Of a stretch of 64,000 nt of DNA, positions 52,774-55,381 are shown in pieces. A program made the translations under genes and the position numbers. The stretch covers positions 133,975 through 197,974 of IMG/VR virus record IMGVR_UViG_3300032330_001609. The stretch is one strand, 5' to 3'. The DNA is from a virus. Its lineage: Duplodnaviria; Heunggongvirae; Uroviricota; Caudoviricetes. The notes below the pieces were generated by a model. It was not told the origin of the DNA. It was given only the letters and a program-made list of their open reading frames with translations, and searched no databases. Each line of letters begins with the position of its first letter. Position 1 is the stretch's first letter.

Positions 52774-52914
52774 AAACAAATAAGATTATGAAAGAATTAA
52801 TAATTAAAATACTAAACGATTAAACCATTCGTTCATAGTCCTACGTTTCACTCCGGAATTCACTCATAGTTTCATCCTTTACTATTTTCTTATTCGTATA
52901 CAGTTTCGTATATA

Positions 52915-52995
52915 TACGTATCATTACGTATATTATAATATACAAAACAAATCATTTCAGACCATATTGTATGTTATAGTATACATTTTACTATT
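52915..52995. promoter_or_regulatory. palindromic operator-like sites (two)
   Basis: gtatattataatatac is a perfect 16-bp palindrome, and tgtatgttatagtataca follows. Confidence 0.4.
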
Positions 52996-53661
52996 GACCA
53001 TTAATAGTCAAGTAAACAATTCCCCCCATTTAATGGAGGGGACTTCGTCCCCCCTCTGAAGAAGGGGACAATAACAGACACGATTAGTTATCCGGTATGG
53101 TGTTCATTTCTAAAGTATGTTCATTTGCAATGAACAAGGTAAATGAATGAACATATGACAGGATGTTATGGTAAGTTATGTTTTGTATCACTGTAGTCAG
53201 TTTTAAACTCACAATACTGATACAAATAATAACTTTTAATGGTGTTTTGTGTCTGTATGGTGTCCCATATTATATTGTCTGAGTTCGTTTAACAGGTCCA
53301 TTAAAATACCCCTTAACGGGTCGTTGAAGTAAGTATTCTAACACACTACGTGTTCCACCGCATAATGTACCATAATGACCTTAATTAGCTGGAGAATAGA
53401 AGTACCTAATTTATTGGTCCTGAGAGTACCTACAGAGGGGAAAAATTGACGTTCTATATAGCGTCAGGACCAATAGTGGTGGTAAAAAGTGGTAACGTGG
53501 GGAATTAAAATGGGGGGAAATACTGTCAAAGTGATTATCCCCAATGACAAATAAGACTGACATTTTGTCAAAATCAAGAAAAATGGAAGAAAAAGTTATC
53601 AACAATTCCCCCTCTTTACATCAAGAACCCCAATTAGTATATTTATAGTAAACGATTTTAT

Positions 53662-53979
53662 ATGTACCAAAACAAGTTTCGGGTCGAGTACCTTAATGAC
53701 TTTAATACGGAAGTAATACAGAATGACTCTAAATATGTGGTCATATATACCTATGGAAACTTCTCCGGGACGTGTGAATATGAACTATTCAAGTCCGGAA
53801 ACAGAATCAAGCAAGATGTTCTCCTACTAACCAAAGTGGAGATGGGGGATATCATAGAGAAGATTCATATGGATTCCCCCCTGACAAGTGATGACTTAAC
53901 CGATATGTCAATGAACATTAGGAACCATTCCTTATCCAAGGTGGAGGAATTTATAAGTGGTCAGGGTCCTCATCAATAA
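53662..53979 (+). CDS. hypothetical protein inside the low-coding hub
   Basis: 105 aa; an ATATTTATAG motif lies upstream. Confidence 0.35.
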   Translation: MYQNKFRVEYLNDFNTEVIQNDSKYVVIYTYGNFSGTCEYELFKSGNRIKQDVLLLTKVEMGDIIEKIHMDSPLTSDDLTDMSMNIRNHSLSKVEEFISGQGPHQ

Positions 53980-54400
53980 TGTTTCTTTTCCACCACTTAA
54001 CAAAACGGTTATCCGGTTTAGCGTGGGGGATAATGTGTGTCTGAATAAAGACCATACACATAAGAACAATAGACAAAATAAGTAATCCAATAATAATCAT
54101 CATAGTTTAAATGTTTAAGAGTTACCGGTGATAATCACCGTCAAATGACAAAGATATAAACAAATTATGAAATTCACAACAAAAGGGGGGATTCTTTAGC
54201 AACAATTTTTATTTAGTAATAGGTTGGATTATGAGATTCTCAGTAAAACGGGGGGATTTATATAAAAAATATAAAGCAGGTTGGAGTCTACTCTTCCACC
54301 ACTCGGTCCGCCCCCTGTTGGATTGATTACCAATTCAGTGATACAAAGGTACGAATAACAAATGACACTGCCAAATAAAATCTTCAATATATTTATTATT

Positions 54401-54862
54401 ATGAAAGAAAATGAAAGACACCCGGAATTAACCCCCAATGAAATAAGAGGTATTGACCTTATTATCAAGTCATTAAAGAAGAAGTATAACTTTATCACAG
54501 GATGGTCTCCGGTAGATGACTATACAAAATATGATAACACACTATTCCTTACATTAGATATTGATATGGATAAGGTGTCTGACTATTATGGTTTCAGAAT
54601 AAGACCACTCATTAAACAATTTATGGAAGACAAAGAATCAGAATGGTATGGTAGAGACATCTCTAACCCCACCGTCTTCTTGGACCTACCTGATAACAAT
54701 GATGAGGGGTACCAATCTAAAGTGAGAATGAATGAACTATCTAATACTCTATACAATCAACTCCCGGAGAAACTACAACGTACTTATATGTTCGTAGGAA
54801 CTTATGACCAAAGAGAATTCCCTGTTGTTATTAACATTCATTCCTTCAGAGCTTACATATAA
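54401..54862 (+). CDS. hypothetical protein
   Basis: The ORF 54362.. was trimmed to MKENERHPEL. Confidence 0.4.
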   Translation: MKENERHPELTPNEIRGIDLIIKSLKKKYNFITGWSPVDDYTKYDNTLFLTLDIDMDKVSDYYGFRIRPLIKQFMEDKESEWYGRDISNPTVFLDLPDNNDEGYQSKVRMNELSNTLYNQLPEKLQRTYMFVGTYDQREFPVVINIHSFRAYI

Positions 54863-54936
54863 GTTATCAACCTGACATCTTGTCAATTGTTAATAACTTC
54901 TCATAACATTACTTGTATAATCCAAACTTACATCAC

Positions 54937-54967
54937 CACCCCCCATCTTTTGTTGGGGGTTTTTTAT
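54937..54967 (+). terminator. rho-independent terminator
   Basis: cccccc-atcttttgtt-ggggg followed by T6. Confidence 0.6.
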
Positions 54968-55060
54968 TATACCCCTCCCGGTAATAACCCCCCTATACCC
55001 CTCCCCTTAGATGGGGGTACGTATCCCCCCTCCGCTCCTCCCCCCATTTATACCCAAAAT
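54968..55060. repeat. poly-C tract cluster (G-tracts on the minus strand)
   Basis: At least six runs of C4-C7 within about 90 nt of a roughly 30% GC genome. Confidence 0.6.
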
Positions 55061-55302
55061 AGGGGCATAATCCCCTAAACGATGTGTTCCTAAAAAAAAT
55101 CTAAAAAAATTTTTGGGAAAAAATTGGGGGAAAAGTCCCCCCGGTTAATTGGTACCCGGAAATGATTTGTAATAATCCGGAAAATTTCCGGTTAGGATAA
55201 ATGGGGGTCAAAATGTAAAAAAAAATTTCCGGAAAAATTTTTGGAAAAAAGGGTTTTCTTTTATTTTTTCAAATATTATATTTGTGGTATGACTAACAGA
55301 TA

Positions 55303-55316
55303 GAACGTGCGCACGT
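55303..55316. promoter_or_regulatory. perfect 14-bp GC-rich palindrome AACGTGCGCACGTT upstream of the ParB-like gene
   Basis: Unique GC-rich palindrome about 65 nt before the ATG at 55382. Confidence 0.35.
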
Positions 55317-55381
55317 TAAGGTTGGTAAATAGAAATTAAAACGGTCGGAGAACGACATTAAAGAATTTAACACATTTTATT

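Follow-up and report, generated by a model that had tools for sequence, protein, structure and literature searches.

A conserved non-coding island with a candidate structured RNA upstream of a ParB-like gene in a probable Bacteroidota jumbo phage

The phage-borne RNAs GOLLD and ROOL (PMC12286853, PMC5737381) are conserved, gene-free sequences of several hundred nucleotides found in lake metagenomes, in which hairpins richer in G+C than the surrounding A+T-rich genome are accompanied by variable peripheral stem-loops, and their function is not known. All these features recur in block C (positions 53014-53613), part of a non-coding island at 52780-55381 in a 64,000-nt window (the whole stretch of viral DNA analysed here, from IMG/VR record IMGVR_UViG_3300032330_001609). 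The island lies directly upstream of a gene for a ParB-like protein. Block C differs from GOLLD and ROOL in having no Rfam match even at E ≤ 10, in a fold that is supported for the first ~230 nt only, and in the lack of tRNA genes nearby; its transcription is putative. As an RNA, it would add a large member to the very short list of phage RNAs that includes GOLLD and ROOL, with an alignment ready for structure work; as an origin, it would be without a mapped precedent in this phage lineage. To our knowledge, environmental Bacteroidota jumbo phages are known almost solely from metagenomes, and their non-coding content is undescribed.

Iteron origins (lambda ori, plasmid oriV) resemble the region in having a short repeated motif, an adjoining A+T-rich stretch and few genes, but the repeats here are 8 nt long, two direct and two inverted, mutually pairing and covarying, no initiator gene was found, and the A+T-rich part is not conserved. 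The ParB-parS, Noc-NBS and KorB-OB systems match the present gene in predicted fold; a further likeness, to the autoregulator KorB, is the conservation of perfect palindromes in the promoter and 5' untranslated region (5'UTR) of the gene itself. The present protein nevertheless scores below the family cut-offs and has no ParA, and its candidate sites (12-15 bp) differ from parS in sequence. The single-strand origins (sso) of rolling-circle plasmids and primosome assembly sites are, like block C, strand-specific non-coding sequences (200-300 nt) with conserved hairpins that tolerate G·T pairs; they belong, however, to small replicons with a single-stranded stage, of which there is no sign in a 332-kb tailed phage. 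Promoters of the Bacteroidota type are represented by TAnnTTTG boxes at 54149 (-), 54344 (-) and 55277 (+), but block C has no such box upstream.

Relatives and modular layout of the island

The 287-aa ParB-like protein is present, residue for residue, on a 332,109-bp metagenome scaffold (ENA ERZ28594640, KRAE22-1_SAMEA4981865 scaffold_1), in which window position 55382 corresponds to position 311553 and which extends 20 kb beyond the ParB-like gene. The window has a G+C content of 28-37%. Structural genes, including those of a prohead protease and a laminin-G virion protein, fill its left 49 kb, and from ~50 kb on numerous small genes follow, each with its own hairpin. TAnnTTTG boxes precede genes (e.g. 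at 50027 (-), 56761 (+) and 58380 (+)); in Bacteroidota promoters this is the -7 motif, with TTTG as the -33 element. The host is probably a freshwater member of the Bacteroidota, from the Flavobacteriia or Chitinophagia, and the virus a jumbo phage of freshwater.

No close relatives among deposited phages were found by megablast of 52000-57000, nor by tblastn with a 583-aa protein encoded elsewhere in the window, and the best match of the ParB-like protein in deposited phages (36% identical) comes from a 735-kb uncultured phage. The "moraphages", a recently described lineage of aquatic Bacteroidota jumbo phages (PMC12619734), may be related to the present phage; their description makes no mention of ParB, intergenic, non-coding or origin of replication. 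With the ParB-like protein as query, homologues were obtained in a graded series spanning 95% to about 42% identity, and their contigs were compared. Scanning IMG/VR with back-translated peptides of this protein gave no match. The DNA query that did recover relatives was the invariant pattern of block C, GGTCGTTGAAG-N8-CTAACAC, which retrieved 12 IMG/VR contigs (38-322 kb) and 82 metagenome contigs, nearly all from freshwater lakes. Among these 94 viral and metagenome loci a single one (L018) looked unrelated and was excluded, which left 70 of the 71 distinct full-length sequences of block C. In 185,579 species-representative genomes of bacteria and archaea the same pattern gave chance matches only; these, five in number, were ruled out as copies of block C on account of their dissimilar flanks. 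Two independent assemblies of relatives, L003 (320,782 bp) and L004 (88,116 bp), have ends that fall within ~70 bp of each other, ~3.9 kb downstream of the ParB-like gene, and these neighbouring ends may mark a repeat or, for the strain concerned, a genome terminus.

Conservation at this locus is highest in non-coding sequence, which has persisted better than the proteins beside it and was recovered as ~70 variants from many different lakes. The non-coding blocks show 72-95% nucleotide identity, whereas the embedded genes show 26-76% amino-acid identity. Against L003, for example, blocks C and F are 78% and 83% identical, and the intervening proteins 52%, 38% and 26%. The median identity over all loci is 95% for element E (53 loci), 84% for block F and ~80% for modules H1-H3.

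An earlier annotation made from the letters alone (the sequence-only reading) had described a collapse of coding density and five kinds of non-coding signal. The latter were all located again, to within a few bases. Coding density is indeed low, with three conserved open reading frames (ORFs) making up ~36% of the 2,602 bases (sum of ORF lengths) and wholly gene-free stretches at 52780-53661, 54104-54361 and 54863-55381, but the collapse is not complete, and the three ORFs are kept as proteins in relatives. A hidden gene with a recoded stop codon in 52700-53700 was rejected, as all six frames hold all three stops. The G/C tracts are strongly enriched, as had been claimed (4-8 runs of G5+ or C5+ per kb vs 0-2 per kb elsewhere in the window), but the enrichment spans 52-59 kb and reaches well past the island.

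In relatives the order is element E, a variable AT-rich spacer, block C, a ~100-aa gene, one or two tiny minus-strand genes, block F, a ~150-aa gene, the intergenic modules H1-H3 and the ParB-like gene. Genes of 420 and 512-529 aa separate the counterparts of 54859-55241 and 55256-55500 in L009 and L010, while in L013 and L014 the counterparts of 54872-55123, 55138-55248 and 55238-55393 are split by 127-aa and 85-aa genes. More distant ParB homologues (L011, L015) lie in dense coding DNA without any of these blocks. The region is a chain of independent modules, not a single device. The non-coding island is real, unusually well conserved and composite, and part of it is ordinary punctuation (promoters, a terminator, 5'UTR hairpins): the TAnnTTTG boxes at 54149 (-), 54344 (-) and 55277 (+), together with the terminator at 54940-54965, account for part of the G/C hairpins and A/T-tracts. 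The island heads a block of small, individually punctuated jumbo-phage genes and appears to be regulatory and non-coding. A second candidate island, at 37357-38060, was discarded, the gap being occupied by small ORFs.

Block C: hairpin domain, 3' part and possible roles

Block C consists of the following parts.

53014-53245, plus strand: 5' domain, three hairpin domains supported by covariation
53022-53066, plus strand: four-run clamp of alternating C6-G4-C6-G4 runs
53089-53165, plus strand: three-helix hairpin, its inner two helices formed by four copies of TGTTCATT
53173-53235, plus strand: long hairpin, followed by UUUUAA
53246-53613, plus strand: 3' part, conserved sequence blocks and variable spacers of fixed length

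The reading of block C that we favour, at about even chances, is either a hitherto undescribed structured RNA of phages or a long folded leader for the 105-aa gene that follows it. Read from the plus strand, its first ~230 nt would fold into the G/C clamp, the three-helix hairpin and the long hairpin with its U-run, and the fixed-length conserved blocks of the next ~390 nt would probably be protein- or RNA-binding sites. A more specific proposal is made tentatively, at somewhat below even chances: block C, or its 230-nt hairpin domain, may represent a family of structured RNAs not described before and found solely in one widespread lineage of freshwater Bacteroidota jumbo phages with genomes of 200-330 kb, made early in infection and acting through the fixed-length blocks, e.g. 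as a scaffold or decoy for host or phage proteins. Conservation, modularity, hairpins with compensatory changes, a bias of the wobble pairs towards one strand, matches to promoter motifs and terminators and a predicted ParB-like fold are what the sequences show. Transcription of block C, like the identity of any binding protein and all the functions discussed here, is something that we infer from the patterns described below.

The G/C clamp corresponds to the GGGG/CCCC hairpins noticed earlier near 53020-53075. Its inner hairpin varies with retention of pairing (GGGGAC-TTC-GTCCCC, GGGGAAC...GTTCCCC, GGGGGAT-GAA-ATCCCCC and GGGGGAC-AAA-GTCCCCC), and single-sequence folds alternate, at similar energy, between a nested arrangement (runs 1:4 and 2:3) and a side-by-side one (1:2 and 3:4). 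The three-helix hairpin contains the supposed iterons. The 8-nt TGTTCATT occurs four times, not five, within 53101-53153, two copies on each strand, and once more at 53910; its count in the whole window (9 vs 7.7 expected by chance) is that of chance, so only its clustering is non-random. The four copies are the paired arms of one hairpin with compensatory substitutions and not direct repeats. Among the variants the innermost helix changes from GTTCAT/ATGAAC to GTTCAG/CTGAAC and GTTCAC/GTGAAC, and the closing helix from TATCC/GGATG to TACTC/GAGTA. Clustered short repeats beside a "ParB-like" gene can thus pass for iterons while being hairpin arms. In ~13 variants the middle domain is swapped for an unrelated hairpin of similar size, which also covaries (ACATAT/ATATGT vs GGGTAT/ATACCC) and often carries a C(UUCG)G or C(UGCG)G loop.

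The long hairpin includes the inverted repeat tttgtatca...tgatacaaa (53181-53226), which the sequence-only reading had correctly listed. Its consensus structure in 37 variants comprises 19 pairs, and double changes affect 7 of these. The apical stem takes the forms AGTT/AACT, AGGT/ACCT, AGGAT/ATCCT and GGGAC/GTCCC, and two pairs are replaced stepwise (U-A to U·G to C-G, and G-C to G·U to A-U). The central ~25 nt (53190-53215 and homologous positions) are inverted in 18 of the 56 scorable variants, the other 38 having the opposite orientation. For 12 of the 56 the nearest neighbour has the opposite orientation (e.g. L106 vs L079, at 92% identity), which implies repeated flips between the inverted arms.

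For the 5' domain as a whole, an alignment of 42 sequences was evaluated with Alifold and pair counts. The paired cells amount to 95.3%; double changes are found in 8 pairs, as compared with 4.6 ± 1.0 in shuffles (none of 500 reached the observed number), and the covariation score is 0.101 vs at most 0.062 with the partners slid. On the plus strand 59 cells are U·G/G·U and 25 are A·C/C·A, and this excess, with the stepwise replacements through U·G and G·U in the long hairpin and the C(UUCG)G loops, favours the plus strand as the folding strand. Mutual information in block C was swamped by clade structure (neighbouring columns covary), and a naive stacked-pair search allowing G·U was dominated by noise; neither was used. 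Compensatory substitutions, as expected of a structured RNA, are found in 53014-53245 and in parts of block F, but not in 53246-53613.

The 3' part contains the conserved blocks GGTCGTTGAAG, CTAACAC, GGTGGTAAAAAGTGGTA, GATTATCCCCA, CTGACATTTTG and AAAAAGTTATCAACAATTCCCCC, and has a length of 397-400 nt in most of 68 variants despite ~25% sequence divergence. The inverted repeat ttggtcctga...tcaggaccaa, previously placed at 53414-53470, is present at 53412-53475. RNAalifold gave 17 pairs for the 3' part, none with double changes, and averaged pair probabilities gave three tiny hairpins only; its conservation shows no significant 3-nt or 10-11-nt periodicity, and it holds no conserved ORF. None of the Rfam 15 families (GOLLD, ROOL, 6S, tmRNA, RNase P, introns, riboswitches and others) reached its gathering threshold in the 64 kb. 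At E ≤ 10 the segment 52400-55500 gave sub-threshold matches only, the best being DUF805b at 52449-52481, outside block C. No tRNA or tmRNA genes were found nearby.

Several observations weigh against an RNA. The covariation of the 5' domain is moderate (8 of 42 pairs), and its count of "further pair types" is not above that of shuffles. A flipped hairpin centre preserves a duplex DNA site as well as an RNA stem, and hairpins with G·T pairs could equally work in single-stranded DNA. The 3' two-thirds of block C have no detectable conserved fold and therefore may act as DNA. Within 52554-54148, a canonical TAnnTTTG box upstream of block C is absent from both strands.

There may also be no separate RNA gene at all, blocks C and F being long cis-regulatory leaders or promoters (attenuators, operators) of the three small genes and the ParB-like gene in early infection. 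Each module does stand directly upstream of a gene, here or in a related genome, an invariant ATATTTAT box and an ATG come after block C, block F and module H3 contain host-type promoter boxes, and the two near-isoenergetic pairings of the clamp runs are attenuator-like. A leader of ~600 nt that is far better conserved than its 105-aa protein would, however, be unusual, and the long hairpin with its U-run (53173-53239) could terminate the transcript well before the ORF. Taken over both blocks, this explanation is considered unlikely.

The main alternative for block C is an origin-type DNA element, in which two sequences adjoining it on the 5' side would take part.

52796-52888, no strand assigned: element E, 93-nt imperfect palindrome with arms AAAATACTAAACGAT and ATCCTTTACTATTTT
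52889-53013, no strand assigned: AT-rich spacer, 24-30% GC, with short CGTAT(A/C) repeats

The minus strand of element E folds to -23.1 kcal/mol (z = -2.6), while the plus strand folds poorly. Relatives have one copy at the corresponding position or, in some cases, two: in L003/L004 and in L007 a gene is enclosed by a pair of full-length copies. The spacer varies from 0 to ~200 nt and is missing from L007 and L013. In L005 the 5' edge of block C is interrupted by a gene for a 296-aa HNH endonuclease (L005:6561-7451, minus strand), with the counterpart of 52975-53020 on one side and that of 53022 onward on the other; this suggests that the gene homed into the boundary.

Modelled on plasmid single-strand origins or on T4-type origins composed of a promoter and a DNA unwinding element, block C with element E and the spacer would be a replication origin or a single-strand initiation signal, in which hairpins that form once the DNA is unwound or single-stranded attract primase, RNA polymerase or an initiator. 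Such a role would suit the length of block C, which holds no gene and keeps both its sequence and its size, its strand-specific hairpins and the adjoining AT-rich stretch with short repeats. It stays a live alternative especially because the 3' part has conserved blocks without an RNA fold and the centre of the long hairpin has been repeatedly inverted, a DNA-level recombination between inverted arms. On the other hand, iteron origins have at least three direct repeats of ~17-22 bp in one orientation, and here the 8-nt TGTTCATT copies lie two per strand within 53 bp. No initiator or replication family was recognised among the ORFs tested (Pfam, PHROG, NCBIfam) or in the gene table of ±10 kb, in which most neighbours are unannotated, nor was a helicase, primase or ParA gene recognised within 10 kb. 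A conserved A+T-rich unwinding element with a switch of skew is likewise not seen: the spacer is dispensable in relatives, and the cumulative GC skew, which the sequence-only reading had proposed as a guide to the origin, rises monotonically through the 64-kb window (of 332 kb) without a turn. The C(UUCG)G loops and covariation through U·G are, moreover, more typical of RNA. An origin is thus regarded as distinctly unlikely. Packaging (pac) sites usually lie near the terminase genes, and no terminase was recognised next to the region; an origin or pac role is neither supported nor excluded.

Two minor features of block C may be added to the candidate RNA described above. The sequence AACAATTCCCCC(C) occurs at both edges (53015-53027 and 53601-53612) within 18-mers that are 89% identical and 586 nt apart, and both copies are kept in relatives. 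A ~25-nt hairpin, CTCCACTAYGTGTCGGTCTMCCGACAC, is inserted at no fewer than four sites (at least 4) in block C, in both orientations, in 7 of the 70 variants (L005:7650-7680, L009:4570-4600, L019, L021, L069, L090 and L106), and its behaviour suggests a miniature mobile hairpin.

The ParB-like gene and its operator-like sites

The ParB-like gene and the sequences before it comprise the following features.

55156-55235, no strand assigned: CCGGAAA sites, candidate protein-binding operators (CCGGAAA at 55156-55162, palindrome CCGGAAAATTTCCGG at 55177-55191, TTTCCGGAAA at 55226-55235)
55277-55381, plus strand: promoter and structured 5'UTR of the ParB-like gene (box, palindrome, hairpin)
55277-55284, plus strand: -7 box TATATTTG
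55304-55317: 14-bp palindrome AACGTGCGCACGTT, in the 5'UTR
55344-55356, plus strand: hairpin GTCG-loop-CGAC, stem kept, loop varying
55382-56245, plus strand: protein of the ParB/Noc/KorB fold, 287 aa, with an EGQHR motif

The sequence-only reading had called the gene ParB-like, and this is true of the predicted fold, although the protein lies below the curated cut-offs of every ParB sequence model tried (Pfam ParB_N, 20.7 bits vs 26.3; TIGR00180, 24.8 bits vs 58.45). A sequence search of the PDB gave no match. An AlphaFold2 model built from 34 homologues (mean predicted confidence, pLDDT, 81) has ParB, Noc and KorB as its top Foldseek matches, with E values of 1e-5 to 3e-3 and TM-scores of only 0.27-0.44. 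ParB proteins consist of an N-terminal ParB/Srx CTPase domain and a helix-turn-helix DNA-binding domain; the conserved motif EGQHR of the present protein stands where they have GERRxR. Homologues are present in strictly lytic Enterococcus phages. Neither the genes up to 10 kb to each side nor the related loci yielded a ParA partner (ParA/CbiA/AAA_31-type). The modelled fold places the protein among the DNA-binding proteins of the ParB superfamily, with no indication of a role in partition.

The CCGGAAA repeats reported earlier are clustered at 55156-55235 and invariant in relatives, but not enriched in the window as a whole (24 sites of this type vs 17.7 expected). ATCCGGAAAT and ATCCGGAAAATTTCCGGTT are invariant in nine variants without covariation, the pattern expected of a protein-binding site, and a TCCGGAAA site lies 137-156 bp upstream of the ATG of the ParB-like gene in L001, L003 and L005-L008. 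The perfect 14-bp palindrome reported near 55303 is AACGTGCGCACGTT in the list above; all relatives with a ParB-like protein at least 56% identical have the ACGTGCGCACGT palindrome at a distance of 74-81 bp from the ATG, in L010 as a symmetric variant, AATGTGCGCACATT. Noc binds the sequence ATTTCCCGGGAAAT, which ATTTCCGGAAAA at 55225-55236 resembles, and KorB represses its own operons from palindromic operators. Given the ParB/Noc/KorB-type fold and the invariant palindromes, a binding or operator site for a ParB-family protein within 55150-55320 is plausible, as a candidate only. The CCGGAAA palindromes and ACGTGCGCACGT in the 5'UTR are likely sites of a dimeric DNA-binding protein. The ParB/KorB-like protein may bind there itself, in which case its task would be regulation and not partition.

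The sequence-only reading had combined iterons, bent DNA and a ParB-like gene into the signature of an origin, parS or pac site; this mostly fails, and what survives are the ParB-type fold and the conserved palindromes. That the island is a ParB-dependent parS or pac site, where the protein loads at palindromes, spreads, and segregates or packages the genome, is very improbable: the fold, the palindromes adjoining the gene, the likeness of ATTTCCGGAAAA to the Noc site and the neighbouring ends of the L003 and L004 assemblies would fit, but there is no ParA partner, the protein is below all curated thresholds and has EGQHR instead of GERRxR, its homologues occur in lytic phages, the association is limited to 55150-55320 (inserted genes separate block C, element E and block F from the gene in L009 and L013), and the contig ends examined lie at differing distances from the gene.

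Block F, the small genes and their punctuation

Block F separates two of the three small genes.

54104-54361, minus strand: block F, probable divergent control region, median 84% identity over 74 loci
54344-54351, minus strand: -7 box TACCTTTG, TAnnTTTG type, conserved
54149-54156, minus strand: -7 box TATCTTTG, TAnnTTTG type, conserved
54126-54140: palindrome CGGTGATAATCACCG, between the TATCTTTG box and the ORF start at 54103

The TATCTTTG box lies ~45 nt upstream of the start (54103) of a small membrane ORF. A variant of the palindrome, CGGCG...CACCG, allows U·G pairing on the minus strand only. Downstream of the TACCTTTG box, in the minus sense, a hairpin at 54318-54333 covaries (TTGG/CCAA, TCGG/CCGA, CCGG/CCGG), and a second hairpin, followed by a U-rich run, is found near 54262-54300. 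The consensus fold of the minus strand comprises 19 pairs, with double changes at 5 of them, and some of its G·U pairs could form on this strand only. Because of these boxes, hairpins and G·U pairs, a leader on the minus strand or a small RNA of ~80 nt is the best interpretation of block F, which is probably transcribed from that strand. It would be a divergent control region in which two host-type -7 boxes drive a structured leader or small RNA before the small membrane ORF.

An intergenic element of ~70 nt occurs in three copies further downstream (56287-56355, 57308-57370 and 57920-57990), each 40-70 nt upstream of an ATG. It has a hairpin, CCGAA-CTCCC-TTCGG or, with a compensatory change, CCGGA-CTCCC-TCCGG, followed by AATCCCCCCGCCCCCTTTTTT. 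The plus strand of block F carries a fourth, shorter paralogue, CACTCGGTCCGCCCCCTGTTGGATTG (54296-54326), and the minus-strand GGGGGCGG of block F is complementary to CCGCCCCC of the ~70-nt elements. More speculatively, a small RNA from the minus strand of block F could pair through GGGGGCGG with the complementary CCCCCCGCCCCC motif before the downstream genes (56330, 57345 and 57963).

The three small genes of the island are as follows.

53638-53979, plus strand: -7-like box TATATTTAT, one mismatch to TAnnTTTG, and 105-aa ORF (53662-53979)
53951-54103, minus strand: small hydrophobic ORF, 50 aa; genes of 49-52 aa called in relatives
54362-54862, plus strand: 166-aa ORF, with homologues at the same position in relatives

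The 105-aa protein is 42-76% identical in relatives, the 50-aa hydrophobic protein 38-47% and the 166-aa protein 26-35%. Neither the 105-aa nor the 166-aa protein has a match in Pfam, PHROG or NCBIfam. The sequence ATATTTAT is invariant in the aligned relatives.

The 166-aa gene is followed, in this order, by an inverted repeat, a terminator, a C-rich tract and an A/T-tract block.

54940-54965, plus strand: intrinsic terminator of the 166-aa gene, CCCCCATCTTTTGTTGGGGG and T6, found by terminator scan and conserved in relatives
54966-55059, no strand assigned: C-rich tract of TATACCCCTCCC repeats and GTATCCCCCCTCC, minus strand G-rich, conserved in 20 variants
55060-55077 and 55126-55142, minus strand: two terminator-like hairpins (terminator scan), flanking the A/T-tract block 55092-55134

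The terminator hairpin (54940-54959, C5...G5) with its T6 stands ~80 nt past the stop codon of the 166-aa ORF and has the form of an intrinsic terminator; the gene would thus be closed by a normal terminator, with the conserved C-rich tract next. For this tract, G-quadruplex (G4) formation by the minus strand had been proposed. With a G4Hunter score of 2.24 at 54968-55057 it does rank first in the window. Neither strand of the 64 kb, however, contains a canonical (G3+N1-7)x4 motif, which leaves long-loop G4s as the one kind that could form. The A/T-tract block is duplicated (55096-55134 and 55210-55248, repeat family D1). The A-tracts, earlier described as phased, are present with starts at 55092, 55103, 55118 and 55131, and at 55217, 55233 and 55245, but their spacing of 11-16 bp is not a regular helical phasing. 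In L013 and L009 these pieces precede other genes, and so they behave as promoter-proximal cassettes.

To the left of the island, the ORF at 52036-52506 (minus strand) is 93% and 88% identical to L007:2313-2681 and L003:5864-6223, in loci whose ParB-like proteins are 56% and 95% identical to the present one. Its family has several paralogues per locus (25-50% identical), and the L007 copy is flanked by element E; from its conservation and paralogues, it is a multi-copy, apparently exchanged gene. The near-threshold DUF805b match at 52449-52481 (plus strand; 32.9 bits vs a gathering threshold of 35.6, E = 9e-7 for 3.1 kb searched) sits in the gap between the divergent ORFs 52036-52506 (-) and 52507-52773 (+). 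To the right, C5...G5 hairpins without a T-run (58852-58897 and 63154-63191) adjoin GATATTTAT boxes 15-20 nt before start codons, and this arrangement of hairpin and GATATTTAT box recurs ahead of small genes in the 56-64 kb block.

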